From positions 4,711 to 68,710 of the forward strand of contig DASTFN010000044.1 in NCBI GenBank assembly GCA_035719905.1: 64,000 bases of DNA. The letters are read 5' to 3'. Both the position numbers and the translations under genes were made by a program. Every line of letters starts with the position of its first letter. The stretch's first letter is position 1. The DNA comes from Allosphingosinicella sp. (GTDB lineage: Bacteria > Pseudomonadota > Alphaproteobacteria > Sphingomonadales > Sphingomonadaceae). A model generated the notes under the pieces. That model was not told where the DNA came from and did not search any database. It saw only the letters and a program-made list of their open reading frames with translations. Shown here piece after piece: positions 31,787-50,624 of this stretch.

Positions 31787-32925
31787 GCCCTCACTCCCAG
31801 CAGCAGGTTCCAGCCGCCGCGGCGCTCGCCAACCGCTCGCCGGAAGTCAGCCGTGTCGCCAAAGGCGCGTTCGTAGGCGACGCCGACATAGGGCGCGAAC
31901 TCACGCTTGATCTCGTAGCGGAGACGGAGCCCAAGCTCGGCTGTGGAGAGACCCGATCCAATGCCGATCTCCGGCACGTCCTGAGCGGCCAGGTCTAGCT
32001 CGATACGCGGCTGGAGGATCAGCTTCTGGGTGAGGCGCAGATCGCTCTCCACCTCGAAGCGCGCCGAGACATCGCCCTTGTTCGACACGATCGCCGCGGC
32101 ATCGACTTCGAGCCAGTAGGGCGCGAGCCCCTCGATGCCGAGCACGAGATAAGCCCGCTCCGGGTCCGGCCGAAGGTCGTAGCGAACACCCGCCTGCAGG
32201 TTCCACCAGGGATCGATCGCCCGGCTGTAGAGCGCCTGGACCTCGGCCTGCTCAGGCTTGCGCCCGAAATCGCCCTCGATCTCAGTCTTCAGCCAGAGCT
32301 TGTTGATGTCGCCGCCGTACCAGGCTTCGGCGTTCAGGAAGTAGCCGTCGCGGCCGCTCCTGATCCGCGCCTCGAGTTGGTCGATCAGGATCTTCGACGT
32401 CACGATCGAGCCGTGCTCCCGCCGGAGCTCCTCTCGCGCCTCGGCCATCGCCTCCTGCCCGAAGAGTGAGTCCGCCGCGTGATCTGGCCCGGATAGCGCG
32501 CCAGGCGGCGGAGGTGCGACGGGCGGCGCCGGTCTCTGCTCGGCCATCGCGCTCATGTCGTGCCCCGCGTGAGGATCGCCGGCTGGCGGCGTTGATGCGG
32601 GCGGCATCGCATGGCCCGCGTGCGGGTCTGCCGCAGGCGCCGGAGCAGGCACCGGCATGACGTGGCCGGCATGGGGATCAGCGGCGGGCGACGGAGACGG
32701 CATCGGCATCGGCGTCGGCGGAGCAGGCATGACATGGCCCGCATGCGGATCAGCGGCGGGCGCGGCAGCCGGAGCAGGCATGACATGGCCCGCGTGAGGG
32801 TCGGCCGCCGGCTCGGCCGGCTTGGTCTCCTCCTTCGGCGGCGCCGGCATCGTGTGGCCCTCATGTTGGGCGAGCGCGGGGGCCGAGACGGAGGCCGCAA
32901 GAGCGAGGATCAAGATCTTCTTCAT
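31777..32925 (-). CDS. copB: Copper resistance outer membrane protein B
   Basis: Start MKKILIL at 32925; His/Met repeats; W.GGD.NKLWLKTE, GLRLRYEIKREFAPYVG, GVRAWF terminus. Confidence 0.93.
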   Translation of the reverse strand: MKKILILALAASVSAPALAQHEGHTMPAPPKEETKPAEPAADPHAGHVMPAPAAAPAADPHAGHVMPAPPTPMPMPSPSPAADPHAGHVMPVPAPAPAADPHAGHAMPPASTPPAGDPHAGHDMSAMAEQRPAPPVAPPPPGALSGPDHAADSLFGQEAMAEAREELRREHGSIVTSKILIDQLEARIRSGRDGYFLNAEAWYGGDINKLWLKTEIEGDFGRKPEQAEVQALYSRAIDPWWNLQAGVRYDLRPDPERAYLVLGIEGLAPYWLEVDAAAIVSNKGDVSARFEVESDLRLTQKLILQPRIELDLAAQDVPEIGIGSGLSTAELGLRLRYEIKREFAPYVGVAYERAFGDTADFRRAVGERRGGWNLLLGVRAWF

Positions 32926-34751
32926 GCCGCGTCTCCGTCGAGCGGCCGGACCGTCACGACACGCATCATCCCGGCGTGCATGTGGAGCAGCAGGTGGCAG
33001 TGGAACGCCCAGTCGCCGGGCGCATCGGCGGTCATGTCGAAGCTTAGCTTCGCCCCGGGCAGCACCATCACCGTGTGCTTGACCGGCTTGGCCTCCTGCC
33101 CGTTCACGACCTCGAAGAAGTGGCCGTGAATATGCATCGGGTGGGTCATCATCGAATCGTTGATCATGGTGACCCGCACCCGCTCGTTCCGCTCGAAACG
33201 GATCGGATCGGGATTCTCGCTGAACTTCTCGCCGTCGATCGACCACATGAAGCGCTCCATGTTGCCGGTCAGATGGACCTCGACGGTCCGAGTCGGCGCC
33301 CGGGTGTCCGGGCTTGGCGTCAGCGCCATGAGGTCCCGATAGGTCAGCACCTTGTGCCCAACGTCCTCGAGCCCGAGGCCCGGATCGCCGGTCCGGTCCA
33401 CAGGCGCCATCGCGATCGCGTCGACGCCCACCCCCACCTTGACGTTCGGCGGCACCTTCGACTTGTCGCGCATGTTCATGCCGCTCATGTCCATGCCGCC
33501 GCTGGAGCTCGGAGCGGCGGAGGCCGAGGCGGGATCTGAACCGTGATCCATGCCCGCCATCGCGCCTGTCGCGGCGGCACCTGCGCCGGCTCCATGGTCC
33601 ATTCCCGGCATCGAGCCGTGGTCCATGCCGCCCATGCCCATGTCCTTCATGGTCAGGACAGGCCGCTGCCGGAGCGGCGGCACCGCGGTGGCCATGCCCA
33701 TCCGAGGCGCCAGCGTTGCCCGGCCCTTTCCGGACCGGTCCATCGACTCGGCAACGAAGGTGTAGGCCTGGTCGCCGGGGGTCACGATCACGTCGTAGGT
33801 CTCGGCATTGCCGATCTGGAGCTCGTGGACGTCGACCGGCATCACGTTCTGCCCGTCGGCGCTCACTACCTTCATATCCAAACCGGGAATTCGGATATTG
33901 AATATGGTCATCGCGGCGGCGTTGATGATCCGAAGCCGCACCCGCTCGCCCGGCTGGAACAGCCCGGTCCAGTTCTCAGCTGGGCCGTGGCCGTTGATCA
34001 GATAGGTGTAGGCGGCGGCCGTCACGTCGAGAATGTCAGTAGGGTCCATCCGCATCTTCGCGAACATCGCCCGGTCGGCGGCCGGCATCTGCTGCTCGGG
34101 ATCGCCGCTAAGGCGCCCGAGCAGGGTCATCTTCTGCCGGTTGAAATAGCCGCCCTCCTTCTTGAGCTTGGTGATGAGCTCGTGCGGATGCCGGAAGGTC
34201 CAGTCGGAGAGCACGATCACATGCTCGCGGTCGTAGGCGACCGGGTCGGCGTCGGCGGGATCGATCACGATTGGGCCGTAATGGCCCATCTGCTCCTGTA
34301 GACCCGAGTGGCTGTGATACCAGTAGGTGCCCGACTGCCGGATCGGGAACTCGTAGACGAAGGTCGACTTCGCCTTGATGCCGGGGAAGCTCACCCCCGG
34401 CACGCCGTCCATCTGGAACGGCAGGATGAAGCCGTGCCAGTGGATCGAGGTATCCTCGTCCAAGCCGTTCTTCACCGCGATCCGGGCGTTCTGGCCCTCT
34501 CTGAGCCGCAGCAGCGGGCCCGGGATCGTACCGTTGATCATCACCGCCTTGCCGGTGCGGCCACCGACTGAGAAAGGCTTCATACCGATCTCGAGGGCGA
34601 TATCCTCGCCCGATAGCGTCGGCAGGGTCGGCGCGAGGCCGGGCGTGCCGCTATGTGCCCAGGCCGGGAACAGCCCCTGCATGCCGAGGCCAAAGGTGCC
34701 GAGCGCTCCGGCGCGGAGCAAAGTCCGGCGGTCAACTGAAATCTGATTCAT
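32922..34751 (-). CDS. copA: CopA/PcoA multicopper oxidase (Tat-exported)
   Basis: RR Tat motif, IHWHG, YWYHSH, HPMHIHGH, WAFHCHLLLHMHAGM. Confidence 0.96.
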   Translation of the reverse strand: MNQISVDRRTLLRAGALGTFGLGMQGLFPAWAHSGTPGLAPTLPTLSGEDIALEIGMKPFSVGGRTGKAVMINGTIPGPLLRLREGQNARIAVKNGLDEDTSIHWHGFILPFQMDGVPGVSFPGIKAKSTFVYEFPIRQSGTYWYHSHSGLQEQMGHYGPIVIDPADADPVAYDREHVIVLSDWTFRHPHELITKLKKEGGYFNRQKMTLLGRLSGDPEQQMPAADRAMFAKMRMDPTDILDVTAAAYTYLINGHGPAENWTGLFQPGERVRLRIINAAAMTIFNIRIPGLDMKVVSADGQNVMPVDVHELQIGNAETYDVIVTPGDQAYTFVAESMDRSGKGRATLAPRMGMATAVPPLRQRPVLTMKDMGMGGMDHGSMPGMDHGAGAGAAATGAMAGMDHGSDPASASAAPSSSGGMDMSGMNMRDKSKVPPNVKVGVGVDAIAMAPVDRTGDPGLGLEDVGHKVLTYRDLMALTPSPDTRAPTRTVEVHLTGNMERFMWSIDGEKFSENPDPIRFERNERVRVTMINDSMMTHPMHIHGHFFEVVNGQEAKPVKHTVMVLPGAKLSFDMTADAPGDWAFHCHLLLHMHAGMMRVVTVRPLDGDAA

Positions 34752-34845
34752 GATCGTCCTCACAGGCGCACGCCTCCTCGGCGCGCACGGGGCGTCAGCG
34801 AGAGCCGGAGGCGGCGCACGCAGCGCCGCCTCCGCTCCTCATTGC

Positions 34846-35067
34846 TTACTGATTGGGCTGCTGATGCTGGCTCATGTCGTGGCCGGCATGCTCGCCGCTA
34901 CCGGGCTTGCCTTTGCCGTGCTCGTCGCAGCAGTCCATCTTCATGCCCATCTTCTCGCAGCAGCACTTCTTCTTCGCCTGCGTGGGGGCTGGCGTAGGCG
35001 CCGTCTGGGCGTGGGCGACACCGGGAATCGCGATCGCAAGCGCGAGCGCAGCAAACATCATCTTCAT
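34846..35067 (-). CDS. Secreted Cys/His-rich microprotein (paralog of 27943-28146)
   Basis: MKMMFAALALAIAIPGVAHA..KCCCEK..DCCDEH..EHAGHDMSQHQQ. Confidence 0.75.
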   Translation of the reverse strand: MKMMFAALALAIAIPGVAHAQTAPTPAPTQAKKKCCCEKMGMKMDCCDEHGKGKPGSGEHAGHDMSQHQQPNQ

Positions 35068-35098
35068 CGAATCTACTCCTGAAAAATCGAGAAAAGTC

Positions 35099-35566
35099 TC
35101 AGATCTTCAGGAGGCCTCGGGGAGGGGGAGTTGCGGCCTCGGGCACGAGGCCGTGCGGCACCGAAACCAGGGTCGCCACCCGTTGCGGGCCATGGTCGAG
35201 AAGCTGCGGCCCGAGCTGGCCGCCGACGGCCGGAATCGCCGGGACGGCGGCGCAAGCCTTGACGCAGTCGCGGGAATCGGAACCGCAAGGCTGATCCTTC
35301 GACTTGCCGTCCATATCCTGGCAGGCGGCCCTGGAGGCGTCGCCGGCCATGTCGTGGCTCATCATCTGATGGTCAGCCGTCTGCGAGGCGGAGGCGGTCA
35401 TCCCTGCGTGGTGCGCCGCGGCCGAGGCCGGCGCAACGCCGATCGCCGCGAGCGGCGACATGGCCAGCGCGAGGATGGCCAGGAACCGGATGAGGCGCGT
35501 CAGCAGCACGGGGCGCAAATAGGCCGCCGGTCCGCCGGTTGCAATGGTCCGAAACCGGATGTTCAT
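35099..35566 (-). CDS. CopL-like Cys/His/Met periplasmic protein
   Basis: Signal/TM segment, AHHAGM..HQMMSHDM, C..C..C..C; start overlaps the cueR stop. Confidence 0.55.
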   Translation of the reverse strand: MNIRFRTIATGGPAAYLRPVLLTRLIRFLAILALAMSPLAAIGVAPASAAAHHAGMTASASQTADHQMMSHDMAGDASRAACQDMDGKSKDQPCGSDSRDCVKACAAVPAIPAVGGQLGPQLLDHGPQRVATLVSVPHGLVPEAATPPPRGLLKI

Positions 35567-35958
35567 GACGCTTTCCCTTCGAGGCCGCCCAGGATCGGGC
35601 AGTCGGGGCGCTCGTCACCATGGCAATTGGCGGCAAGGTGCTCGAGCGAGCGCCGCATGGCGTCGAGCTCCTTCGCCTTGCGCTTCAGCTCGGCCGCCCG
35701 AGCCAGCGCCAGGGCCTTCACGTCGGCGCTGGCCCGTCCGCGGTCCTGCCACAGTTCGAGGAGCTTGCCGATTTCCTCGATCGGGAAACCCAGATCCCGG
35801 GCCCGCCGAATGAAACGAAGCGTATGGATGTCGCGCTCATCATAGTCCCGGTAGCCCGAGTCCCGCCTCGCCGCCTTGCCGATCAGCCCGATCGACTCGT
35901 AGTGGCGGATCATCCGCTGGCTGACGCCGCTTTCGGTCGAGGCCTGCCCGATCTTCAT
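35563..35958 (-). CDS. cueR: Cu(I)-responsive MerR-family regulator
   Basis: [24 protein letters not shown]-terminal CHGDERPDC. Confidence 0.92.
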
Positions 35959-38312
35959 AGCCGCACTCCCCTCAGCCGGAGCGAGTTGCCGATTACCGCG
36001 ACCGAGCTCAAGGCCATCGCCGCGCCGGCTATCATCGGGCTGAGCAGCAGGCCGAAGAGCGGGTAGAAGACCCCGGCCGCGATTGGCACGCCCGCCCCGT
36101 TGAACACGAACGAGAAGAACAGGTTCTGGCGAATGTTGCGCATCACCGCCCGGCTGAGGCGCCTTGCGCGGACGATTCCGCCGAGATCACCCTTCACAAG
36201 CGTCACCGCCGCGCTCTCCATGGCGACGTCAGTCCCGGTCCCCATAGCGATGCCAACATCGGCGGCCGCAAGCGCGGGAGCGTCGTTGATGCCGTCCCCG
36301 GCCATGGCAACCCGCCGGCCTGAGGCCTTCAGACGCTCGACCACCGCTTGCTTCTGATCCGGGAGGACGTCGGCGATGACCTCGTCGATGCCGCCGACCT
36401 GGCGCGCCACCGCCTCAGCGGTTCGCCGATTGTCCCCGGTGAGCATCACCACCCGGACACCGTCCCGGCGCAGTTCGGCAATCGCCTCAGCCGCGCTCTC
36501 CTTGATCGGGTCGGCGACTGCGATGAGCCCCGCCAGCTTGCCGTCGACGGCGACGAACATCACGCCCTGACCCTCGGAGCGAAGCTCGTCAGCCTGACCC
36601 ATCAGGGGGGAGGGGTCTATGCCGAGATCGGCCAGCAGGACCTTATTGCCCAGCGCCACCGGCCGGCCCTCGACCGAGCCGCTGACGCCTTTGCCCGTAT
36701 GCGAAGCGAAGTCGGTGGTTCCAGCCAAAGCGAGGCCGCGCTCCTCGGCCCCTTCGACGATCGCGGCAGCCAGCGGATGCTCGCTGCCGCGCTCCAGCGA
36801 GGCTGCAAGGCGCAGCAGATCGGCCTCGTCGACACCGGCCGCCGGGATGACCGCCGTGAGCTTGGGCTTGCCCAGCGTCAGGGTGCCGGTCTTGTCGACG
36901 ACCAGAGTATCGATCCGCTCCATCAGTTCGAGCGCCTGGGCGTTCTTTACCAGCACGCCGGCCGTGGCGCCGCGGCCGGTCCCGACCATGATCGACATCG
37001 GCGTGGCAAGGCCAAGCGCACAGGGGCAGGCGATGATCAGCACCGCCACCGCGTTGACGATGGCGAAGCTCATTGCCGGCTCCGGTCCGAAGATCGCCCA
37101 GACCCCGAAGGAAATGATTGCGATGAGGATGACCGCGGGCACGAACCAGGCGGACACCTTGTCGGCGAGCGCCTGGATCGGGGCGCGAGAGCGCTGCGCC
37201 TCGGCGACCATCCGGACGATCTGGGAGAGCATCGTGTCCTGACCGACCCGCTCGGCCCGCATCAGCAGGCTGCCGGTGCCGTTGACGGTGGCACCCGTCA
37301 CCTTCTCTCCCGGCACTTTTTCCACCGGAACCGGCTCGCCGCTGATCATCGACTCATCCACTGACGAACGGCCCTCGACGACCACGCCGTCGACCGGCAC
37401 CTTTTCGCCCGGCCGCACCCGAAGCAGATCGCCGGCATGGACGTGACCGAGGTCGATATCCTCCTCGCGCCCGTCGTCGCGGACGATCCTCGCCGTCTTC
37501 GGCGCCAGCCCGAGCAGCGCCCGGATCGCCTTGCCGGTGGCCGAGCGGGCGCGCAACTCCAGCACCTGCCCAAGCAGAACCAGGGTCGTAATCACCGCCG
37601 CGGCCTCGAAATAGACAGGCACCACGCCGCCCATCGTACGGAAGGAGGGCGGGAACAGGTTTGGAGCCAGGGTCGCGACGAGGCTGTAGGAATATGCCAC
37701 GCCGACGCCGAGGCTGATCAGAGTGAACATGTTGAGGTTGCGGCTCTTCAGCGACGCCCAGCCCCGCTCGAAGAACGGCCAGCCGCCCCAGAGCACGACC
37801 GGCGTTGCGAGCGCGAGCTGCACCCACACCGAGGTCCTCATGGGCAACCAGTGCCAGCCCAACAGCTCCGAGCCCATTGCCAGAACGAACAGCGGCAGCG
37901 ACAGGGCCGCGCTCACCCAGAAGCGGCGGCTCATGTCGATCAGCTCGGGATTCGGGCCCTCGTCGAGGGTTGGCATCTCCGGCTCGAGCGCCATGCCGCA
38001 GATCGGACAGCTGCCAGGGCCAATCTGGCGGATCTCCGGATGCATCGGACAGGTCCAGATCGCGCCCTCAGGCACGTCCTCCGCCCCGGCCGCCTCGGCT
38101 TTCGGATGTAGATAGCGATGCGGATCGGCGATGAACTTGGTCCGGCAGCCCGCGCTGCAGAAATGATAGGTCGCGCCGTCGAGCTCGTGATGATGCGCCG
38201 TCGCCGCCGGATCGACCGTCATCCCGCAGACCGGATCCTTCACCGTGGCCGCCTCCGGCTGGGCGGTATGATCGTGATGGCAATGTCCGGCATGGTGATT
38301 CTGGGCGTCCAC
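35955..38312 (-). CDS. P1B-type copper-translocating ATPase with YHS domain
   Basis: [41 protein letters not shown]. Probable GTG start at 38312 with GAGGAGG RBS. Confidence 0.96.
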
Positions 38313-38370
38313 AGCTCGATCCTCCTCGACGAAGCCGCCGATTCGGCTCCCGTGGACCCTCACATGGTGT

Positions 38371-38455: not shown

Positions 38456-39349
38456 CTACCCCAGCCTCTTACGGCAGACCCGCTCCACGCGCCGCTGAAG
38501 CTCCGTAACCCGCTCCGTCAGCCAAGTGATCTCGTTTCGGGAGATCCTGTAGTGCGGCGAGTAACGGGCGTTTACATAGGCCTGTCGCAGCAGTTCGAAG
38601 GCCCGCCGCTCGAATTTTCCTTCCCTGGGCCAGGCCTCGATCAACTCCGGAGCTATCTGTTCAGCCTGGGACCGCAGGAAGTTCAGCTTGTGCGACTTGG
38701 GGCTGTAGAGGGTCAGAACGAGCAGGACGCAGTGATACAGCCGCTCTGCCGTCTGATGGAGGTCGAAGGCAGCCTCCTTCCAATATTCCTTGCCGGCGGC
38801 CGTGCGGGCCAGATCGAAACGGCGCTCGGCGCTTGGATACCACTCGTTGAAATAGGCCTCCGCTTCGACCCTCGCCTGTTCCTCCGGCAGCTTTCTCGGC
38901 GTGGTGAAGGCGAAGCCCTGAGCCTCGTAGAGGACCGCCCCGTGCTCCACGATGTCCACGAAGAAGGGGCGGCCCCGCTCGAGCTGGCTGTTCACGTCGG
39001 AAAGCGAATGGACGATAAAGTTGACGGGCGCGCTGAGGCTCCCGGCAATCGATGTCTCGCGCATCAGCCTGTCGTCGGCGACCGACCAGAAGTCGATCAC
39101 GTCCGTCAGACGATCGTCGCTGACGACGACGAGGATATCGTAGTCCGATCTGTAGCCACCGACCGGATCATCCACCCAGTCTCCTCGGGCATAGGAGCCG
39201 TAGAGCACCACCTTGAGGATGCGTCCGCCCTTTTTCCATTGCTGGCTCGCCCGCGCCGTGACCGACTCGAACTCCTCAAAGAGAATCCGAACCACCGAGG
39301 CGAGCTCTCGCTGCTTGCCGTCCGGCAGATGATCCAGGCTCGTTTTCAT
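38456..39349 (-). CDS. Fused minimal nucleotidyltransferase-HEPN protein
   Basis: Start MKTSLDHLP at 39349; LYGSYARGD..SDYDILVV; HEPN-like AAFDLHQ.AE..HKL..YVNARY. Confidence 0.88.
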   Translation of the reverse strand: MKTSLDHLPDGKQRELASVVRILFEEFESVTARASQQWKKGGRILKVVLYGSYARGDWVDDPVGGYRSDYDILVVVSDDRLTDVIDFWSVADDRLMRETSIAGSLSAPVNFIVHSLSDVNSQLERGRPFFVDIVEHGAVLYEAQGFAFTTPRKLPEEQARVEAEAYFNEWYPSAERRFDLARTAAGKEYWKEAAFDLHQTAERLYHCVLLVLTLYSPKSHKLNFLRSQAEQIAPELIEAWPREGKFERRAFELLRQAYVNARYSPHYRISRNEITWLTERVTELQRRVERVCRKRLG

Positions 39350-39876
39350 CCCGCCCCATGTCGTCGCGCCGGCGCGGAATGCCAAGCGCATTTCATCGCT
39401 GTGCGTCCGCCGCGGCTCGCGTGAGCGGCCGTCCCGACGGCTCCCGCCCGTCGATTGAAAAGAGTCACAGTCTTTTCCCTCGAACATCCCCATAAATCTT
39501 TTCGGTCCGGATCGGACCTTCCTGCGAGCGTTCCGAATGCTCAACCCGTTGAACATCCATGGAGTCCGCTCGGCGCACCCTCCCTTGCTGCCAGCACCGT
39601 CCGTCCCAATCGGGTTCCCAATTCAGGAATCCAATGCAATACGCGGATTGATCGGCTCGAGCAGAGATGCAAACACTCGCAGGACGTCGACAGCACGACT
39701 CGCACGGAGCACCCAAGGTGGAAGTGCACACACCGCCACTTGAACATCTCCACGCAGCACCGACGTAGTCGTCACAACAATCGCATACCCAACCGTCGCC
39801 GCTTCACTGCGGAGGCGGCTTTACAAGCAGGATCGGAATAAGTAGCGTGGTGGACGACGCACGGCAGGGGGCAAGC

Positions 39877-40500
39877 ATGGCGAGTACTGTGGACGCATCG
39901 TCCGATGCGGTATCTCGCGACTCCCGTGCAGCCCAGTTCCACTCCTTCCATCGATTTCAAAGCCAGCAGTCCGATTGGGTACCCTTCGAACCAACGAAGC
40001 CCAGCGGCATGTCGACGCCCCAGATCGAAACTTTGGCCGAAGGCCTCGCATCCGAGCTGAACTATGTTCCGGGTACGGACATCCGCGAACTCGTCGTTCG
40101 TATAGGCGGCAAACTCTTGTCGACACCGGTACTCGGCGTGTCGGATGGCACTGACGGCACCCTGCTGCTTCGCCCGGACTCAACAAATTTCGTGATAGTT
40201 CTTCCAGTCAGAGCGAGCTCGCGCCAGGATCAACTGGCAGTAGCCAAATTACTGGGGCACTATTTTTTGCATTATCGGTTTTTCCAAATCGAAACCGAGG
40301 GCAAGGCCAGTCGTCCAACGCCGGCGCGAGCACAGCGCGAAGCGCTGCTATTCGCACTTGCGTTCCTTATGCCAGCAGAGGCATTTTCTCGCGCCTATGA
40401 ACTGGCACACGGGAAGATGGACGTGGTAGCAGCGTCTTTCGGCGTGCCGTTCGAAGCGGCGGAACTGCGTCACCGGAGGCTCCAGATCCGAGCCAAGTAA
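39877..40500 (+). CDS. ImmA/IrrE (DUF955)-like protein with degenerate HExxH
   Basis: AKLLGHYFLH where AHELGH is expected; EALLFALAFLMP where EANxFAAxxLMP is expected. Confidence 0.7.
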   Translation: MASTVDASSDAVSRDSRAAQFHSFHRFQSQQSDWVPFEPTKPSGMSTPQIETLAEGLASELNYVPGTDIRELVVRIGGKLLSTPVLGVSDGTDGTLLLRPDSTNFVIVLPVRASSRQDQLAVAKLLGHYFLHYRFFQIETEGKASRPTPARAQREALLFALAFLMPAEAFSRAYELAHGKMDVVAASFGVPFEAAELRHRRLQIRAK

Positions 40501-40518: not shown

Positions 40519-41718
40519 GTGGCGCAACTTCCAGACCATATTCCCGAGATTCTGAAACCGCGCCTGCGCCTCTTCATGAGCGTGGATGTCGTCGGCTCGA
40601 CGAAGCTGAAGCAGCCCGAGTTTCTCAGCAAGCAGATCGATTGGCTCGACATTCTGCAGCGGTTCTACGGTGAGACTGTCGAGGCCGTGCAGACTGAATG
40701 GCTCGCCCTGCGAGCGCTTTTCCCGGATCCTGCCACCCACCCGGACTTCCTTGGCGATCCGCCGCAATTCTGGAAAACGGTCGGCGACGAGGTCCTCTAC
40801 TACAAGGACCTCACCGACAGCCGGCAGCTGGCCCTCGCCCTCGAATGCTGGAAGAAAGCGCTGACGCGGGTCAGGACCTTCCTCTACAAACAGAACGAGG
40901 GCGCGCTCAAAGACGCGGTTCCGGAGGTTAAGCTCGACGTCAAATCGGCCGTATGGACTGCCGGCTTCCCCTGGCGGAACAAGACGATCGTGAGCCCGTC
41001 CGGATTGCTCAACGAGCTGTGCAAGGGTGACTACGCCGAGGTGTTCCAGAACGCCCACGAGAAGGCTCACCGCGAACCAGCGCCAGGAGACGGAACGGGC
41101 GCGCGGGTCGAATTCGATTTCATCGGCCCAGGCATCGACATCGGGTTTCGCCTCTGCGGATTTGCGACGGTGCAAAAAATGGTGCTGAGCATGGATGCCG
41201 CCTACATCCTAGCGGCAGTTCGCGGCGCCAACGCCTTCCTTCTACCGGAACCTCTATATTATGACGGGCGCATTCCCCTCAAAGGCGTCTTCGCCGGCCG
41301 GGAATATCCGCTTTTTTGGATCGACAACTCCCATCCCGACTCCTTCGAAGCCAAGGAGTCGCGCGCTCGGCATCCCATCAGCGACACCGATGTCCTCAGA
41401 TTCTGCGAGACGTTTTACAAGGAATTCTACAACCTCTTCACGCACCGCCCCTTTATCGTCGGCGACCATGGCGGCCTCACCGCGATACCCGACGATTTCG
41501 ACCGCTGGATGGGTGTCCAGGTTGCCCAGTACGAAGAGCGCCGGAAAGAAGGCGAGCGCCGCCAGCAGGCCGAGCAGGAACTGACGAGAGCCGGCGCTTC
41601 GCGCGGAGGCGGCGCACGGCAGCCGGCCGCAATCGACGTCAACGAACTCAAACAGAGACTCACTCGGGATATCGCACCCCAGGCCGAGGACGAGCCTGAG
41701 GCTCCCAAAAAAACCTAG
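40519..41718 (+). CDS. Class III nucleotidyl cyclase-like protein
   Basis: LFMSVDVVGST, WKTVGDEV, DFIGPGIDIGFRL match the D-xx-GST / GD / GxxV(N/D)xAxR layout. Confidence 0.65.
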   Translation: MAQLPDHIPEILKPRLRLFMSVDVVGSTKLKQPEFLSKQIDWLDILQRFYGETVEAVQTEWLALRALFPDPATHPDFLGDPPQFWKTVGDEVLYYKDLTDSRQLALALECWKKALTRVRTFLYKQNEGALKDAVPEVKLDVKSAVWTAGFPWRNKTIVSPSGLLNELCKGDYAEVFQNAHEKAHREPAPGDGTGARVEFDFIGPGIDIGFRLCGFATVQKMVLSMDAAYILAAVRGANAFLLPEPLYYDGRIPLKGVFAGREYPLFWIDNSHPDSFEAKESRARHPISDTDVLRFCETFYKEFYNLFTHRPFIVGDHGGLTAIPDDFDRWMGVQVAQYEERRKEGERRQQAEQELTRAGASRGGGARQPAAIDVNELKQRLTRDIAPQAEDEPEAPKKT

Positions 41719-41758
41719 CGCATTTCCGATGCCGCATCTCCAGCCCTGGCAGGCCGCG

Positions 41759-42838
41759 CTACCGTTCCAAGGCTCCGCGGAACGCGTCGGGGAAAACATC
41801 GATCGCATCAAGCACCGCCGAAAGGGCCAGCGCCGGGCGTTCAGCGAGCTCTTCGACCGATAACGGCGGGATCATCGACAAGAGATGGAGCGCCCTGGGA
41901 TCGTCTGGGACCGGCTCGCCAGCGGCCTGCCCTACCACCCACGGCAAGAGCGCGAACAACGCCAGCTCGTGAGCACGCCTGTAGAAGCAGGCTTCGCGCA
42001 CATCAGGGTGATCGATGCTGCGAGCGAACTCATCGACGGTCCAGGCAGTCGGATGGCGCTCCCGCCAGGCTTTCACCCAGGCATCCTCGCGAGGAAAGCC
42101 TGATGTCGCGAAGTGAAGCGCCGGCTCCTCGATAATCCTCCTCCTGGACGACTCCGCCTGCGCTGGGTTCACCCGGATCTTCACCGCTCCGTAGCGCAGC
42201 CTCGCCCGCAGGAACAGACGAGTGGTCTCGGCGTGAACGGTACCGCCCAAGCGATCCTGCTCTCGAAAATGTCCACCCCAGCGGACATAGTCGGAAAGCA
42301 AGTAGCCGCACGCTTTGTCGTCGACGATTACCTCCTCATTGTCGCCGACGCCGGCGGCCTCCATCGCATCGACGATCGACCTTTCGAGCGCCCGATATTC
42401 GGGATGAGCCGCATCGAACTCTGCAGATCGGCGAATCGCTCCCTCGAGCAGGAAGCCCCGACGGCCGGCCAGCGCTTCCCACATACGCTGCGAATACCCG
42501 GGCAAGTAAAGCGTGTCGGCGTCCGCCTGAAGGATCAAGAGTTCCTCAGGCGCAATGCCAAGGTCGGCTGCTAGATCGGCCGCCGCGAAAGCGCCCCGTC
42601 GCCTCGGCGGAACGAACCCGCGCTCAGGCTCGACGAGGATCCGGACGGATCCCGGGCGGGACGCGGAGGCGATCCGTTCCATAACCGCCGGCGTCCGGTC
42701 GGTTGAACCGTTGTCGATAAGGAACAGGAATACATCATCAGCCGCCGCAACACCGCTTACGCCAAAGCCGAGCGATGAGGCTGCAGCTTCGATGTATCCT
42801 TCCTCGTTGAGGCAGGGGATGACGATGGCGACTGCCAT
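41759..42838 (-). CDS. GT2 / GT-A glycosyltransferase, last gene of the RiPP operon
   Basis: AIVIPCLNEE, LIDNGSTDRT, LQADAD; starts 1 bp after the upstream stop. Confidence 0.88.
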   Translation of the reverse strand: MAVAIVIPCLNEEGYIEAAASSLGFGVSGVAAADDVFLFLIDNGSTDRTPAVMERIASASRPGSVRILVEPERGFVPPRRRGAFAAADLAADLGIAPEELLILQADADTLYLPGYSQRMWEALAGRRGFLLEGAIRRSAEFDAAHPEYRALERSIVDAMEAAGVGDNEEVIVDDKACGYLLSDYVRWGGHFREQDRLGGTVHAETTRLFLRARLRYGAVKIRVNPAQAESSRRRIIEEPALHFATSGFPREDAWVKAWRERHPTAWTVDEFARSIDHPDVREACFYRRAHELALFALLPWVVGQAAGEPVPDDPRALHLLSMIPPLSVEELAERPALALSAVLDAIDVFPDAFRGALER

Positions 42839-42839
42839 C

Positions 42840-43418
42840 TCAAGGTCGAGCCGGACGAACGGCCACCGTTCTCCTCGCCGCCCGCCGACTCGCGCCTCCG
42901 CCGTTGGGTTTTTGCGGCAACAAGGCCCGAGCCATCCGCAACGACGCTGCGCATCGCGGCGAGCAGGGCACATGGCTGATCCTCGTGCGTCCCTCATTAT
43001 AGCCGCTCGGGTCGATCATCCTAAAAAGGCCGACAAAGCGCCGCGATGCGATCGTCTGTCCCCAATCGTCTAGCCCTTCATCATTGCGACGCCCGGCTGC
43101 AATGCAACAACACGCCGGATACCCTAGGGCCAGGCCCAGGGCGATGGTATGCCTCCCGGCCCTGGCGTCGATGCGCAAGACCCGCCGGGCTGAGCCGGCG
43201 ATGGGAGCGATGGAGAAAAACCCGTCTTTGTCTACAGCCGCGAAGAGCCCTTGCCGACGGGCCCACCGGCGAACCTCATGGCGATCCGCCCGATACACCA
43301 GCTGACTTCGCATTACCGGCCTGACCGACCCTCGAAGCTGAGCGAGATCGACTTCCGCCGAAGCGCGCATCCAACGCGGCCTGGCGCTCGATCCGGTCAA
43401 GACCGTTTCCTCGTCCAC
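42840..43418 (-). CDS. Cys-rich DUF483-like hypothetical protein
   Basis: LGLALGYPACC and SHVPCSPRC..S motifs; overlaps the GNAT stop. Confidence 0.6.
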   Translation of the reverse strand: MDEETVLTGSSARPRWMRASAEVDLAQLRGSVRPVMRSQLVYRADRHEVRRWARRQGLFAAVDKDGFFSIAPIAGSARRVLRIDARAGRHTIALGLALGYPACCCIAAGRRNDEGLDDWGQTIASRRFVGLFRMIDPSGYNEGRTRISHVPCSPRCAASLRMARALLPQKPNGGGASRRAARRTVAVRPARP

Positions 43419-43867
43419 TTCATGATCAGCTGATTGGTCGGCAAACCGGCGTCGACATAGCCGGCTTCCTCGGCGGCGCGGCGGGAAGCCACATTGATCT
43501 TCCGCATGTGGGCGTAGACGACATCATACTGGCTCGCCTCGCTTGCGAGCCGATAAGCTATACGACCAACGCCTCGGCCTTGGGAGGACTGGTTCAGATA
43601 GATTTGAATCGAGGCGTGCTTTCCGACCGGCGCCTCATCGATCCAATTGATGTAAATCACTCCTGCCCGCTTGCCGGCCGCGCGGATCACCCAGGCATGA
43701 CCGCCGGGACCGCCGCCCTTTCCGGGCGTCCCCTTGGTAGGAACCAACTCCACCTCGGCCGCAGTGACCTTGGCTAGGTCGGGTCTGGGTTTCGATGCCT
43801 TCGGCTTGGGTGTCGGCCGCGTCGGCGACCTCGGCCGCGAAGGCGGTTTGCGCTTGGAATCAGGCAT
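43397..43867 (-). CDS. GNAT-family N-acetyltransferase
   Basis: SQGRGVG (Q/RxxGxG), N.ASRRAAE.AGY; ATG at 43867 overlaps the upstream stop. Confidence 0.85.
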   Translation of the reverse strand: MPDSKRKPPSRPRSPTRPTPKPKASKPRPDLAKVTAAEVELVPTKGTPGKGGGPGGHAWVIRAAGKRAGVIYINWIDEAPVGKHASIQIYLNQSSQGRGVGRIAYRLASEASQYDVVYAHMRKINVASRRAAEEAGYVDAGLPTNQLIMKWTRKRS

Positions 43868-44855
43868 AGAGCTCCTCCAGCCCCGCCTGCAGACGCCGGT
43901 CGGACTCGTCCCACAGCTCGGCCGGGAAAAACCCCGGCGAAAAGGCGATGACAGCGTCCTCAATCCTCGGCACCAGCTGCGCGTTCCTTAGAACGGAGGT
44001 CAGCCGATCCACCTGCCGAAGGACGTCATCCGCTCCCGGGTCGAGCACTTCCGGGCGCTCGCGCCAATCCCCGTCACCATCATATCGGTTGTTGAAATAA
44101 TCCATGTCGACGTGGAGCAGGACGGGCCCAGGCCCGATATTCTCAACCCACCGGTCGAGATCGTCAGTGATCCGATATTTGCCTGGGCCAGTGCCGGCGC
44201 TCGCCTTCACGAGCTTCACCGCCGGCCGTGACGCGCCAGGCTCGAGAAGATCGTCGGGTTCGTGGCCAAGTTCAATCGTGTAGTCCGTCGTCTCGCGTAT
44301 CTTCGGCGCCTGACCGAGCTGCCGCACATCCGCCTGTGGAAAGCGATGCAGGAAGGGCGTCAGGAAGCTGCCCATACCCACGGCCCCGCTTTCCAGCGCG
44401 GAGCGAACACTGCCTGGTGATGCCACGTCGAAAACCTCACCGCTGATCGGGTCGACCAACTCGCCGTCGCGCGTGAACAACCGGGGCGATGCAAGGTCGC
44501 GATGATCGTCAACATGGAGAATTGTCAGCGGATCGCGCGGAGAGCTGCCTGATCGTGCAACCCACTCGCTCCAGCTGTGCAGCGTCCAAGTATCGTACAG
44601 CGCCCGAAGCACTCGGCCCGTACGTCGCCTTGCTAGTGCCATCTCGCCGCGGCCGATACCACCCCACGACCCGAGGCCGGTGTCCAGCGCCGGATCGACA
44701 TGGCGATCCTCGCCGTCAGGCCAGCCAAGCCTCAGTTCCCAATGATCGCCGTGCCGAACGGCCGTGGCGTCCTTGTCGCAGAAGTAGTCCCTGAGGGCGC
44801 CGTGGCGAGCGGCCTCGTTCTCCGGCAGCCGCTCCAGGGGCACATTCAGCGACAT
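43860..44855 (-). CDS. Arginase/ureohydrolase-fold (UPF0489-like) metalloenzyme
   Basis: LHVDDHRDL (HxDxHxD), LHVDMDYF (DxD), SPGFFP; TGATG-coupled to the radical SAM gene. Confidence 0.72.
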   Translation of the reverse strand: MSLNVPLERLPENEAARHGALRDYFCDKDATAVRHGDHWELRLGWPDGEDRHVDPALDTGLGSWGGIGRGEMALARRRTGRVLRALYDTWTLHSWSEWVARSGSSPRDPLTILHVDDHRDLASPRLFTRDGELVDPISGEVFDVASPGSVRSALESGAVGMGSFLTPFLHRFPQADVRQLGQAPKIRETTDYTIELGHEPDDLLEPGASRPAVKLVKASAGTGPGKYRITDDLDRWVENIGPGPVLLHVDMDYFNNRYDGDGDWRERPEVLDPGADDVLRQVDRLTSVLRNAQLVPRIEDAVIAFSPGFFPAELWDESDRRLQAGLEELYA

Positions 44856-46990
44856 CAGGCAGCCAGCGACTGGTGCGTCGCCTGACCCTCCAGCACTCCG
44901 GCCAAAGCCCGGCCAACCTCGGTGAGTGGACATCCCCGCAGGGTGGCGAACGCCTCCTCCAGGTTGCGATCGGTGTCGGCAAGCTGATTGAGGGCACGCA
45001 TCCTCAGACGCTCCGGCCCGCGATCCCGAACATGCTCCCAGAATCGCCGCAGCTCGATGAACACGAACACCGCATGTAGGACCCCGGACGCCGGGCGAAG
45101 ATCCTCCCGCCATGGAGACACTACAAGGCCTCCCGGCTCCGTCATCGGGAAACGCCGCTCGAGTAGGTAGAGCTTTTGATGGCGATGCTCATGGATGAGC
45201 GAGTCGGCGAGATCGTAGGGATCGATGATCCGATCGCCCTGAACGACGGATACGAACAAGGCGCCGGGCACCGAGTTGTCGCTGAAGGAGACAATCTTCT
45301 CCGGGTGCGCCGACGGGTCGCGAACAAACTGAACGGCTCGACAGATTCGGCCTATCTCTTCCCTGAGGGCTGGCCGCCATTCCCCGATGATATCGAGAGC
45401 CTCGCTCACCACCGGTGCGGCCGATGCCGCGACCTCCGGCCCCTCAAAGGCAATGGATGCGCCGAACGGTGCGCGCAGCCAGGGATCGTCAATGCCGACC
45501 GACAATCCGTTTGTCGCTATCGGCCGACTTAGCACCTGCTCGAGATACGACACATTGGGGCTAAGCGGCGCCCCGTCGACGTCGTAGACCGTGCGGCCCT
45601 CACGCTGAGCTATAAATGCCCTCTGCCACGCCGTCAGGCCGGGATTGCCAGCCAGGATCAATTTCTCTTCAGAGCTGAGGCCATCAATGAGTTCGTGCAG
45701 CCGCTGATCGCCGAGACCGGCTCCGACGACTTCGCTCAATGCCTTGTCGAGGTCCGCGGCATTCTCTTGGCAAGTTTCGTCCCATAGCTCCGCGACGATA
45801 GGCGCCGCGCGCTCGGCAAGCTCGTAGGCCGCCAGATCGACATCGAGCTCACGCGGCGCAGGAGCGGCCGGACCAGCCAGCCCGCCCTCCAGCCGTCGTC
45901 GGACGTGGGCGACAAGGCTTTGCATCTCGCCGCAGTAGACGGTGGGATTGGCAAAGCCATCGGCACCGAAGCGATGGGGCACGGAACCGCCGCCGCAAAT
46001 GTCGACGATCCCGCAGGCCTGGCAAACCGGGCTTAAGCCCTCTTTCGACAGCAAGCGGCGATGGGCTTCGATCGCGTCTGAGGAAGCGACGACAGAAATT
46101 GGAGTATCGCGAACCGAACCCGCAAGACGCGTCGCTCCGTCCCCCACCACCTTCAGTACGTCGAGGTCATGATAGGTGCCGTCAGTCTCAATGGTGATCA
46201 GGCTGACGTCGCCCAGACCGAACGCATCGGTTCCAGATGAAAGCCCCATGATCGCGTCGAGCAGGGATTCAAAAGTCCGCACTCGCAGCTCAGGATATTG
46301 GTCGAACCATATATCAAACGCTTCGATCAGCCATCTCTCGTAGCGGCCGGGGTCAAGATCCCGGCCGGGTGGCGGCTGATTGTGGTGCGAGTCCGGAAGC
46401 AGGAAATCGAGCTTGGGAGGTGCGTGGCCGGAAAAATATTCAAAGAGCGTCGCCGGCGGCACGCTCGCATCGATTACCGAGATAACGCCCGCGAAAGTAT
46501 TGGGCCTGGCCTTCAACCGCTCCAGGGCCGCCTCGACTTTATCGAAGCTCGATCGCCCACGCCGCGTGGTCCTGTGGAGATCGTTCACCTGCCGAGGCCC
46601 ATCGAGGCTCAACGAGACCGAAATCCGCTCCGCCTCCAAGGCGTCGAGGACTTCGTCCGTGAGGAGCAGCCCATTGGTTTGCATGCCGACTTCAAGCTCG
46701 ACATCAGGGCCCACGGCCGAGCGTAAGTCACGCGCGAACTCGACGATGTGATCACTGCCGGCGAGCAGCGGCTCCCCGCCGTGGAAAATCACCGCAGCGC
46801 GCTTCAGGCCGACTTCAGACGCGTATTCCGCAAGCCGGTTCGCAAAAGCCGCGCGGTCGTCAGCGGAAAGATGGCGTGGCATCGACCGCCAGGCCTGGTC
46901 CGCATGATGATAGACGTAGCAATAATCGCAATCGAGGTTGCACCTCGATGCGACCTTGACGAGGAACGACGTAATCCTCGCCGCTGTCAT
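44855..46990 (-). CDS. yhhB: Radical SAM/SPASM peptide maturase fused to HExxH domain (FxsB/YhhB-type cyclophane synthase)
   Basis: KVASRCNLDCDYC, IFHGGEPLL, SPASM CQAC...CGGG..HR..YC, C-terminal LIHEHRHQKL; 10 bp downstream of the precursor. Confidence 0.88.
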   Translation of the reverse strand: MTAARITSFLVKVASRCNLDCDYCYVYHHADQAWRSMPRHLSADDRAAFANRLAEYASEVGLKRAAVIFHGGEPLLAGSDHIVEFARDLRSAVGPDVELEVGMQTNGLLLTDEVLDALEAERISVSLSLDGPRQVNDLHRTTRRGRSSFDKVEAALERLKARPNTFAGVISVIDASVPPATLFEYFSGHAPPKLDFLLPDSHHNQPPPGRDLDPGRYERWLIEAFDIWFDQYPELRVRTFESLLDAIMGLSSGTDAFGLGDVSLITIETDGTYHDLDVLKVVGDGATRLAGSVRDTPISVVASSDAIEAHRRLLSKEGLSPVCQACGIVDICGGGSVPHRFGADGFANPTVYCGEMQSLVAHVRRRLEGGLAGPAAPAPRELDVDLAAYELAERAAPIVAELWDETCQENAADLDKALSEVVGAGLGDQRLHELIDGLSSEEKLILAGNPGLTAWQRAFIAQREGRTVYDVDGAPLSPNVSYLEQVLSRPIATNGLSVGIDDPWLRAPFGASIAFEGPEVAASAAPVVSEALDIIGEWRPALREEIGRICRAVQFVRDPSAHPEKIVSFSDNSVPGALFVSVVQGDRIIDPYDLADSLIHEHRHQKLYLLERRFPMTEPGGLVVSPWREDLRPASGVLHAVFVFIELRRFWEHVRDRGPERLRMRALNQLADTDRNLEEAFATLRGCPLTEVGRALAGVLEGQATHQSLAA

Positions 46991-47000
46991 GAAACCGCTC

Positions 47001-47174
47001 CTACGAGCGGCTGTGACGGTGATGCATCCGGTCGTAGCTGGTGATCACCTCGCTCGCCTCAGCTTCGGCCAGCACACGCTGCTGAAGCCGCTGGAGCGCA
47101 GGATTGGCAGGGCGCGCGCCGAGAACGGCAGAGCGGAGAGAGGCAGACGACTTGGAAGCCAATGCGGCGGACAT
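47001..47174 (-). CDS. yhhA: RiPP precursor peptide, 57 aa (YhhA-type triceptide precursor); absent from ORF track
   Basis: Manual translation MSAALASKSSASLRSAVLGARPANPALQRLQQRVLAEAEASEVITSYDRMHHRHSRS*; strong RBS AAAAGGAG; directly upstream of the radical SAM gene. Confidence 0.88.
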   Translation of the reverse strand: MSAALASKSSASLRSAVLGARPANPALQRLQQRVLAEAEASEVITSYDRMHHRHSRS

Positions 47175-47358
47175 GCTTCGTTCTCCTTTTCGAGACCCAA
47201 CCGTAGCCGTTCGCCCCGGTCACTTCAACAGGACCAGCCGACTTTTTACGTGAATTTCGGATATTCTGGATCGTGGGCGCGCCGGCTGAAACCGTCCTTG
47301 CACCACAGCGCCCGTTCAGCCTAGCCTGACCGCCTTCGCGCCCGCGAGTCTCAACGAA

Positions 47359-49056
47359 ATGTCTTCTCCCCTCGAAGCTTATCGAATCTTTATCGCTTCA
47401 CCGAGCGGACTAAAGGCCGTGCGAGAGCGCTTTCGAGCCACAATAGACAAGTACAATGAGACCGATGCCAACCGGCGCGGCGTGATGTTCATGGCGGTAG
47501 GGTGGGAAGCCACCCTTCCCGGAATCGGGCGGCCGCAGAAGATCATCAACGACGATCTCCATGGCTGCGATTACTTCGTCCTTGTCCTCCATGATCGGTG
47601 GGGGACTCCCGCCTCCAACGAACCTGATGCGGAAACGGGATCGGAGGAGGAATTCCGCATCGCGCTCGAGTTGCAGCAAGACAGCGACAAAGCGATGCGG
47701 GACGTGGTCGTCTTCTTCGTCAGCGTCGACCCGGGAAAAATGAGCGACCCAGGCCCGCAGCTCCAGAAGGTGCTCGATTTCAGGAAAAAGATCGAGGCTG
47801 ACAAGAAGCTCCTCTACCGCCAGGTCGAGAATGCGGACGACTTTGCCGACGCCTTGCGCGCCCATCTCGCCCGTTGGCTTCATAACCACGAGCAGGGCAA
47901 GGCCGGCGGGAACGGCGCCGAGGCCGAAGTCCCAGCCGAATCCGAAACCATTGCCCTCGCGCCGGAACCGGCTGAGGTTGGAGCGCCGGGCCCGGACGAT
48001 CAGGGAACGGCGTCGCCGGCGGCACCCAACAGCGGCGACGACCTCGTCGCGAGAGCGAACCAGCTGATCGCCGAATCTAAACCCACCGAGGCCGAAAGCC
48101 TGCTCGCCACGGCTGCCGAAAAGAGGAACAATCCCGCCCACTTGCTGGCCTACGCCGAGCTCTTGGCCCGCCTCAGTCGTCCCCGAGCAGCCGTGACGGA
48201 GTACGAAGCGACCGCGGACTTGGCCCAGGACGCGGGCGAAGCCGAAATCGCACTGCGCGCCCTCTTGGCTCTGGCCTATCTGCAGGATGATCTCGGCCGC
48301 GGCGATAAGGCGGAAGAGGCGGCCGCAAGAGCCATCGAGATTAGCCTCGCCACAGACGAGCTCCCGGGCGCCGCGCGAGCTCGGATCCTGCTTGGCGAGC
48401 GGCGACGGCGAGCGGCCCGATTCGCGGAGGCCGAGGAGGAGTATCGCCAGAGCATCGATCTCGCCGCTCACGGAGGCGACCCCCTGGCCGAGGCTGACGC
48501 ACGGATCGGCCTCAGCGAGGTTTTTCGCGATCAGGAAAGGCTCGATGAGGCGCGCGAGTCCCTCTGCAAAGGCATCGCCTTGAAACAGCAGGGCGGAGTC
48601 ACGGATCTCGGGGACGCTTATGCTGCGCTTGGCGCTATCCTCGAGACGATGGGCGACGAGGACGGCGCCGAAAAGCACTACGGAATGAGCCTCGAGCTTT
48701 TCAAACAGAAGGGCGACCGGTCCGGACGGGCAGATGCGGCCGATCACCTCGGCCAGGTCCGGCTTAGACGAGGCGACCTTGAAGGTGCCGAAGACGCCTT
48801 CCGCGACAGCGCCTCACTCTTCGAGGGAATGTTCAACTTCGAAGGCGCTGCCGACGCCTATCTCAGCCTGGGCCGGATTCAGACCGAGAGAGGCGATTTA
48901 GGAGCTGCGGAGGAATCGTTCCGCTCAGCACTCTCCCTGGCCGAACGCAAAAAAGACCCGGCGGCACGCTCGCTTCGCGAGGATATCCTCAACTATCTGG
49001 AGAGCATTATCGCGCGCGCCGGCGCCGTGGTGGATCAGCCCCCTCCGGCCGGTTGA
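47359..49056 (+). CDS. DUF4062-domain plus TPR-repeat protein
   Basis: RIFIASPS..ER..GWE..QK.IN..L..CD.FV..L..RWGT..EEEF..A; C-terminal helical TPR-like repeats. Confidence 0.8.
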   Translation: MSSPLEAYRIFIASPSGLKAVRERFRATIDKYNETDANRRGVMFMAVGWEATLPGIGRPQKIINDDLHGCDYFVLVLHDRWGTPASNEPDAETGSEEEFRIALELQQDSDKAMRDVVVFFVSVDPGKMSDPGPQLQKVLDFRKKIEADKKLLYRQVENADDFADALRAHLARWLHNHEQGKAGGNGAEAEVPAESETIALAPEPAEVGAPGPDDQGTASPAAPNSGDDLVARANQLIAESKPTEAESLLATAAEKRNNPAHLLAYAELLARLSRPRAAVTEYEATADLAQDAGEAEIALRALLALAYLQDDLGRGDKAEEAAARAIEISLATDELPGAARARILLGERRRRAARFAEAEEEYRQSIDLAAHGGDPLAEADARIGLSEVFRDQERLDEARESLCKGIALKQQGGVTDLGDAYAALGAILETMGDEDGAEKHYGMSLELFKQKGDRSGRADAADHLGQVRLRRGDLEGAEDAFRDSASLFEGMFNFEGAADAYLSLGRIQTERGDLGAAEESFRSALSLAERKKDPAARSLREDILNYLESIIARAGAVVDQPPPAG

Positions 49057-49064
49057 CCCGAGAC

Positions 49065-50624
49065 TTAGAATTTCCAGCGGTCTTCCCAGGTGGAAAGCGT
49101 CATCTCACCCACCAGGCCGGGGCTGGCCTTTTGTCCGCGCCGGCGTTCTTCCTGCTCAACCGCCAAAGACAGGTAGATCAGCGCGGCTCGGGCCTTCTTC
49201 ATCACGAGCATCGCCTTTTCCGCGAAGTCGTCTCGCGACAAAGAAATCCGCAAGCCGTCGGAGGACAGCTCGAGCTTGTGCGCATGCTCGGCCCGCCATG
49301 CCCATCCCTCGTGAAGCTGAAGATATTTGTGTTCGAGGTGGTTGCGAAGGTCCGCCAAGTCCCTCGCCTCGGGTTCGAGGGCTTGGCGTGCCTGCTCCTC
49401 GAAGATGTCCTTGGAGAGCCAGAACAAGCCTCGCAGCGGCCAGTTCTGCAGCAGGGAAAATTGCGTAAGGAGCGGCTTGGGAGGCTTCCCCTTCACCTCA
49501 TACCAAACGCTCCTGAAGCTGACCTGCGTCGGCTTGTGGCCGACGCTCCAGTAGGAGTTGATGAAGTAGGCGATCTTATCGAACAGCGAGTAGGCCGCCC
49601 GATAGCCAAGCCGCAGCAGCTCCGTCGCCCGGCTGAGCGAGGGATAATCGAACGTGTTGTACTGGAGGACCCAGCGATCCGAGAAGTGCGGCTTATCGGC
49701 CTGAAGGCCCTCGAAGAGGGCGTATCGCGCCGACACATATTCCTGCTTCAGCTGATTGAAGAAGCCGATCACCACCGGCATCCCAGGATCGGATGTGCTG
49801 ATCGAGGGGAGGGTCAGCACATCGTGCGCCGCGATCGGAGCCTGCACCACGTCGTTGAGCGGGTTTAGAAACAATCGGTTGGCGAGACACCATGACCGGT
49901 AATCCCGCTCGAGACGGCTCCGTCCGAGGCTGCCCCGCTCAGGCTTAAAGTCGCTGCGGATCTCGTCGAGTGGAAAATAGCCGGCGATCTCCTCCCGGTG
50001 CCTGGTGAAATAGGCATCGGCATCCTCGACCGCGGCGCTATCGATGACTGCGCCCTCCTCCGCCGACCGCGCCAGGCTGTCATGGGCCTCCAGTGCGAAG
50101 ATCCCGACATGTCCTGAATCGTACAGAGATCGCGCATAATGGGAGAGGCCGACGCCGCGGTTTCCGAGCGCCATGGCGAACGTCGGAATGATCCGCAGCG
50201 CCCGGTCCCAGACCTCAAGCGCCTCAATGAACCTGCCGATCGTATCGAGGCATCCGGCGAGATTGGTCAGAATCTGACATTGGCGAACAGGGTCTAGTTT
50301 CGGAAACTCATCATGATTGACTGCCTTTCTCAATGCCAGGATCTGAGCTTCGAGACAGGCGTCCTCCCAGGCCCAAGGGTCTGGCTGGGCGATCGCGCGC
50401 CGGGCTGCCAGCAAGTTTGCCTGGAAATAATGGACCAATATTTCGTCGGCGGCCGCGAGGGTACGAGTTCCTAGCTCGGTGAGGACCTGCTCAGCTCGAT
50501 CGAGGCCCGCCGCAATACCGCCTTCATGCGATAAATCGATCAATGTCGCGGCGGCCGACAAGGCCTGATCTGTCGGCAGACGCTCGATGGGTGCATCGAT
50601 CAGGCGTTTTAGAAATGCATCCAC
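49065..50624 (-). CDS. TPR plus LA2681-type HEPN protein (putative RNase toxin)
   Basis: N-terminal TPR (LTNLAG..GRF.EA..WDRAL), NRLFLNPLND, LRGLFWLSKD, RNHLEH (Rx4H). Confidence 0.8.
   Translation of the reverse strand: MDAFLKRLIDAPIERLPTDQALSAAATLIDLSHEGGIAAGLDRAEQVLTELGTRTLAAADEILVHYFQANLLAARRAIAQPDPWAWEDACLEAQILALRKAVNHDEFPKLDPVRQCQILTNLAGCLDTIGRFIEALEVWDRALRIIPTFAMALGNRGVGLSHYARSLYDSGHVGIFALEAHDSLARSAEEGAVIDSAAVEDADAYFTRHREEIAGYFPLDEIRSDFKPERGSLGRSRLERDYRSWCLANRLFLNPLNDVVQAPIAAHDVLTLPSISTSDPGMPVVIGFFNQLKQEYVSARYALFEGLQADKPHFSDRWVLQYNTFDYPSLSRATELLRLGYRAAYSLFDKIAYFINSYWSVGHKPTQVSFRSVWYEVKGKPPKPLLTQFSLLQNWPLRGLFWLSKDIFEEQARQALEPEARDLADLRNHLEHKYLQLHEGWAWRAEHAHKLELSSDGLRISLSRDDFAEKAMLVMKKARAALIYLSLAVEQEERRRGQKASPGLVGEMTLSTWEDRWKF

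Follow-up and report, generated by a model that had tools for sequence, protein, structure and literature searches.

Three-residue cyclophanes on aromatic-X-X motifs are formed by SPASM radical SAM enzymes in several systems, including XyeA/B, GrrA/M-OscB, FxsA/B, HaaB, HtkB, and MicB; however, their motifs and partner residues differ from those of the peptide described here. Closer to it are the YhhA/YhhB/YhhC system (Sugiyama et al., JACS 2022) and the ChlA/ChlBH system of the cyanobacterium Chlorogloeopsis sp. PCC 7702 (PDB 9gm3, 9gmc, and 8s5f; Morishita et al., Nat Chem 2024, and Ruel et al., JACS 2025, both as cited in PMC12636437). In the former, YhhB joins Tyr-C3 and His-C2 to Arg-C-beta, according to PMC11002830, and the HExxH partner produces erythro-beta-OH-Asp, the hydroxylated Asp being given as the L-erythro form in PMC12186529. 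A His-Asn-Arg ring is also described in PMC11499958. For the Chl system, cyclization by ChlB is reported to follow a hierarchical order (PMC12912966), and ChlH is an aKG-dependent non-haem iron HExxH enzyme, whose beta-hydroxylation of Asp and His takes place after the cyclophanes have formed (PMC12636437). The bioactivities of triceptides have not been elucidated (PMC12257519).

Comparison with these systems indicated that a 57-residue ORF in the window, the 64,000-nucleotide stretch of Allosphingosinicella sp. DNA analysed here, very probably encodes a YhhA/ChlA-type precursor of a triceptide RiPP, which would be ringed and hydroxylated by the adjacent fused enzyme. This assignment is based on the family models for the peptide and the enzyme, both of which were matched above the curated cut-offs, on the structure matches to ChlB, ChlH, and ChlA, and on the published work on orthologues. 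The gene order and the fused radical SAM/aKG-HExxH architecture of the locus are like those of ChlA/ChlBH, and the maturase is 47% identical to the ChlBH enzyme over its full length. In the core, SYDRMHHRHxRS, the window and the PCC 7702 chl locus (L062) differ at one residue only, which is Ser versus Asn at the central position of ring 3. The window leader has diverged from that of ChlA save for an xPALxR block, and the host of the window is an alphaproteobacterium rather than a cyanobacterium. As for the Yhh system, both equivalog models (NF041705 and NF041707) were passed by the window pair; however, YhhC is a separate protein supplied on a separate plasmid in the citing papers, whereas the window hydroxylase is fused to the synthase.

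The precursor family is already known: it is curated (NF041705), it has been characterized both structurally and experimentally, and RefSeq names such peptides. Several of the 317 peptide-related clusters in the protein database already bear the NCBI name “YhhA family cyclophane-containing RiPP”, and the database relatives of the maturase likewise carry the YhhB name. The peptide is a further orthologue of a characterized RiPP precursor, and PGAP with NF041705 would name such an ORF. The case also demonstrates that precursor genes below an ORF cut-off can be found from sequence alone.

Precursor gene and peptide

The initial annotation had placed a 57-aa peptide at 47001–47174, and translation of the minus strand over this interval gives exactly 57 residues followed by a TAG stop codon, with no longer ORF possible in the frame. 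The peptide ends in ITS-YDR-M-HHR-HSR-S. The three aromatic-X-Arg triads carry the residue numbers originally assigned to them, namely Y47-D48-R49 (47028–47036, minus strand), H51-H52-R53 (47016–47024, minus strand), and H54-S55-R56 (47007–47015, minus strand), with M50 between the first two and S57 as the last residue. All three lie in a near-invariant C-terminal block, I44–S57 (47004–47045, minus strand), which is preceded by the leader region M1–V43 (47046–47174, minus strand). The latter contains the block N24-P-A-L-Q-R-L30. Both regions were delimited by conservation in the 79 loci described below, and the boundary between leader and core presumably falls between them.

A ribosome-binding site, AAGGAG (47182–47187, minus strand), was read from the sequence 7 nt 5' of the precursor ATG. 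The precursor stop codon overlaps an AGGAG preceding the maturase ATG, from which the precursor gene is separated by 10 nt. A promoter and terminator scan of 41500–47500 revealed nothing above shuffles, and a sigma-70-like promoter was not found upstream. The peptide gene and the maturase gene are each present in a single genomic copy, as judged from the genome scan.

The peptide scored 64.1 bits against the NCBIfam model NF041705, “YhhA family cyclophane-containing RiPP” (cut-off 36, E 9.1e-18), and 63.6 bits in the genome scan. It also matched ChlA in the structure where the latter is co-crystallised with ChlB (PDB 9gmc_B, E 8e-8). The features that mark membership of NF041705 are present: the Tyr-x-Arg, His-x-Arg, and His-x-Arg triads correspond to Y47DR, H51HR, and H54SR, and the gene adjoins, on the same strand, a YhhB-type radical SAM/SPASM maturase. 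The family models, the matches to the ChlB, ChlH, and ChlA structures, and the literature all agree with the earlier proposal of a Tyr/His/His cyclophane precursor bearing up to three rings.

The fused maturase and its predicted chemistry

The radical SAM gene at 44855–46990 (minus strand) had been named as the partner of the peptide, and this pairing is corroborated by a passed YhhB model, by the short gap between the genes, and by the match to the solved structure of ChlB. The product of 711 aa combines a radical SAM/SPASM cyclophane synthase (residues 6–368) with an aKG-HExxH beta-hydroxylase (residues 528–697). It scored 487.7 bits against the YhhB equivalog NF041707 (cut-off 445), and its C-terminal part scored 142.8 bits against the aKG-HExxH peptide beta-hydroxylase model TIGR04267 (cut-off 40). 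Residues 4–368 matched residues 5–369 of the ChlB radical SAM domain (9gm3_A, E 3.8e-134), and residues 384–706 matched ChlH (8s5f, E 6.1e-76). In 14 maturase homologues, the CX3CX2C cysteines C17/C21/C24, the SPASM-region cysteines C323/C326/C332/C353, and the HExxH residues H600-E601-x-x-H604 (H600-E601-H-R-H604 in the window) were invariant.

By analogy with the orthologues, the N-terminal ~43 residues with the conserved NPALQRL block would serve as the leader bound by the radical SAM/SPASM domain. The enzyme would abstract a C-beta hydrogen from each of R49, R53, and R56 and join the Arg C-beta to C3 of Tyr47, C2 of His51, and C2 of His54, respectively. The predicted product carries three three-residue cyclophanes, on YDR, HHR, and HSR, at a cost of 2 Da each (-2 Da). 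The fused aKG-HExxH domain would then beta-hydroxylate ring-internal residues, for which Asp48 and His52 are the expected positions (+16 Da each); since this hydroxylase is part of the same enzyme, +16 Da steps are to be expected besides the -2 Da steps. The chemistry outlined here comes from the published work on orthologues, from which we infer that the Allosphingosinicella copy is expressed and processed and would behave in the same way.

Conservation of the precursor across related loci

A search with one genome per species yielded 80 loci with the fused enzyme (41–81% identity), so that 81 loci including the window were compared. The related loci belong to Alpha-, Beta-, and Gammaproteobacteria, Cyanobacteria, Acidobacteriota, Actinomycetota, Bacteroidota, and Planctomycetota, that is, to at least six phyla. 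The closest maturase relatives, with 80–81% identity, are found in Allosphingosinicella MAGs. The distribution of the family is sporadic: among 400 further genomes sampled from the phylum, the cut-off was passed by one, and among 15 from the same family as the window genome it was passed by none.

In 79 of the 81 loci, the maturase is immediately preceded by a small ORF with the same core, and one of the two loci without it is cut at a contig end. The core, SYDRMHHRH[S/N]RS, is nearly invariant in these 79 loci while the codons vary, and in 63 of them TSYDRMHHRH[N/S]RS is followed immediately by the stop codon. The Ile three residues before the Tyr (I44), the Tyr itself, R53, R56, and the His of ring 3 do not vary in any of the 79; the ring-1 Arg, R49, is replaced by Lys in a single locus. 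The N-P-A-L-Q-R-L block of the leader is likewise conserved across the set. Each invariant core residue is written with 2–6 different codons, and the preservation of the residues in spite of this variation indicates that selection acts on the protein; the peptide is thus under purifying selection. The Ser in the middle of ring 3 counts against the triceptide reading, in that the studied peptides have Asn at this position, but Ser is found there in 32 of the 79 loci.

The otherwise fixed C-terminus is longer in three loci, from Parvularculaceae (L025), Terricaulis (L029), and a groundwater proteobacterium (L035), where PG or PR follows the final Ser/Thr.

Genes downstream of the maturase

The peptide and maturase genes head a tightly packed minus-strand operon. 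The cassette 3' of the maturase consists of genes for an arginase-fold protein, here termed X (present in 81/81 loci), a small GNAT acyltransferase (77/81), a DUF483-like Cys-rich protein (48/81), and a family-2 glycosyltransferase (GT2; 53/81). When the ORFs of the 81 loci were clustered all against all, the recurrent ones were limited to the six genes of the cassette and the shadows antisense to them, and neither an exporter nor a protease was among those conserved. Of the four genes kept downstream of the maturase, one likely encodes a peptide arginase, and all four are concrete candidates for the missing steps toward the natural end product.

Protein X (43860–44858, minus strand; 332 aa) starts at an ATG that overlaps the maturase stop codon (ATGA). 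As a single sequence it had no Pfam match. Alignment of its homologues revealed invariant HxDDHxD and HxDxD motifs, and the sole match of the resulting profile in the PDB was the peptide arginase OspR (8brp, E 1e-5). The AlphaFold model of X (pLDDT 94.4) also had OspR 8brp as its top Foldseek match (E 5.3e-10, probability 1.0, TM 0.50–0.56), followed by ureohydrolases, at a sequence identity between X and OspR of 17–18%. OspR coordinates manganese through six ligands, H12, D39, H41, D43, D165, and D167 (PMC10028609). The residues D117, H119, D121, D251, and D253 of X are invariant; the first three align with D39/H41/D43 of OspR, D251 and D253 were assigned to D165/D167 by motif only, and an equivalent of His12 is not evident. 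The fold and the DxHxD and DxD motifs are common to both proteins. However, X scored below the cut-offs of both PF12640 (UPF0489; 13.9 bits, cut-off 27, with weak matches in 23 of 29 homologues) and NF052474 (17.7 bits, cut-off 350), and for this reason it was not filed as a member of the peptide arginase family. From the model and the profile match, X is likely a remote relative of peptide arginases.

The GNAT gene (43397–43866, minus strand) begins with an ATG located within the X gene, so that the two genes share 8 nt (seven coding bases and the first base of the stop codon). Its product matches PF13302 and PF00583 and is a minimal protein of ~156 aa, with a Lys/Pro-rich N-terminal tail of ~45 residues and a core of ~100–110 residues. 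The DUF483-like protein (42840–43418, minus strand, start uncertain) gave weak PF04467 matches in 14 of 20 members. It has invariant LGYPxCC and HxPCxxxC motifs, which suggest a possible metal or Fe-S site. Its model (pLDDT 88) had no relative in the PDB by structure (best E 0.77), and its profile gave no meaningful match there. The last gene of the cassette encodes the GT2 (41759–42838, minus strand; PF00535, E 3e-8), which in some loci is located upstream of the cassette instead.

Possible fate of the predicted tri-cyclophane

The presence of these genes raises the possibility, which we put forward tentatively, that the tri-cyclophane is an intermediate: X would turn one or more of the ring Arg into ornithine, the GNAT would acylate the freed amine, and the GT2 would add a sugar. 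Such a relay would extend the triceptide assignment rather than strictly compete with it, and its product would be one not yet described for the YhhA/ChlA family. It is consistent with the constancy of the X and GNAT genes, which, where present, always follow the maturase immediately, with starts and stops that overlap, with the retention of the DxHxD and DxD metal motifs in X, whose closest fold and sole profile match is a peptide arginase, and with the identity of the three ring-closing residues, each of which is an Arg that varies little or not at all. A precedent is provided by the selidamides, whose operons, with their Arg-rich RiPP cores, likewise pair an arginase-fold enzyme with a GNAT (KspR/KspN and PhaR/PhaN; PMC8784127) and in which arginase action is followed by that of the GNAT. 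In biphenomycin-like peptides, an arginase acts on an aromatic motif that has already been modified (PMC12257519).

However, X is only a remote relative of the selidamide enzymes and OspR, with scores that fall far short of the curated PF12640 and NF052474 cut-offs and one ligand His of OspR not accounted for. Its putative substrate here is a cross-linked Arg, and an Arg cross-linked at C-beta might not be accommodated in an arginase site. Deacetylases and other amidinohydrolases share the arginase fold as well, and no link between triceptides and arginases was found among the papers searched, in which the primary triceptide studies are represented by citing articles. As the arginase-then-GNAT relay is established in selidamides, conversion of the invariant ring Arg to ornithine and then to acyl-ornithine is a reasonable idea, and we consider it plausible by analogy.

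A broader proposal is somewhat more doubtful. According to it, the characterized tri-cyclophane is only an intermediate, which a cassette devoid of exporter and protease genes would convert to an (acyl)ornithine form and glycosylate, and the role of the end product would be physiological and conserved, for instance the binding of metal or a function like that of a cofactor, instead of that of a diversifying antibiotic. Such a role is suggested by the near-invariance of the core from Bacteroidota to Cyanobacteria and by its content of His and beta-OH-Asp.

Other identities of the open reading frame

Returning to the YhhA/ChlA-type precursor, assignment of the peptide instead to the His-Xaa-Ser (HxsA/B) or the FxSxx-COOH (FxsA/B) radical SAM system is very improbable. 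The tail R-H-S-R-S does contain H-S and ends in x-S-x-x, and the maturase is also above the cut-off of the broader FxsB subfamily-domain model TIGR04269. However, the maturase scored only 60 bits against HxsB (TIGR03978, cut-off 370), position -5 of the peptide is Arg and not Phe, so that the F-x-S-x-x C-terminus is absent, and the scores against the specific equivalogs, YhhA and YhhB, both exceed the cut-offs. The HxsA/B and FxsA assignments were therefore ruled out by scores and motif. The scores against XyeB (152 bits, cut-off 450) and GrrM (98 bits, cut-off 310) were also well below the cut-offs.

A frame left open by chance in the GC-rich DNA, or an upstream ORF with a regulatory function, neither giving a modified product, has a negligible probability and is effectively refuted: short ORFs are indeed numerous in the region (133 of at least 40 aa in the surrounding 14 kb), so that a 57-aa open frame alone proves nothing, and a Pfam search with the single peptide sequence gave no match, but the HMM E-value of 9e-18, the position upstream of the maturase in nearly all loci, and the amino acids kept over synonymous variation across phyla, with up to six codons per invariant residue, place the ORF far above chance, and an orthologue has been co-crystallised with its cognate enzyme.

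Genomic surroundings

A copper-resistance region (31777–38363) is located 9–14 kb from the operon encoding the His-rich peptide; it includes genes for a multicopper oxidase (32922–34763, minus strand) and a copper P-type ATPase with YHS and HMBD domains (35955–38363, minus strand). A link of the RiPP to copper handling was considered and is not supported, copper genes being found within 8 kb in only 6 of the 80 related loci.

The operon is flanked by conflict-type genes. On one side, these are an MNT-HEPN gene (38456–39556, minus strand) and an IrrE/M78-like gene (39847–40500, plus strand). On the other side are a DUF4062-TPR gene (47359–49056, plus strand), which is also divergent from the operon in five related loci, and an HEPN_LA2681 gene (49065–50624, minus strand). 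A gene for a TniB-type AAA ATPase lies further along the window (62238–63353, plus strand), as would fit an island that is bounded by a Tn7/Tn5053-like element and may include the operon. Taken together, the copper-resistance, HEPN, IrrE-like, and TPR genes and TniB in the wider window suggest such an island.
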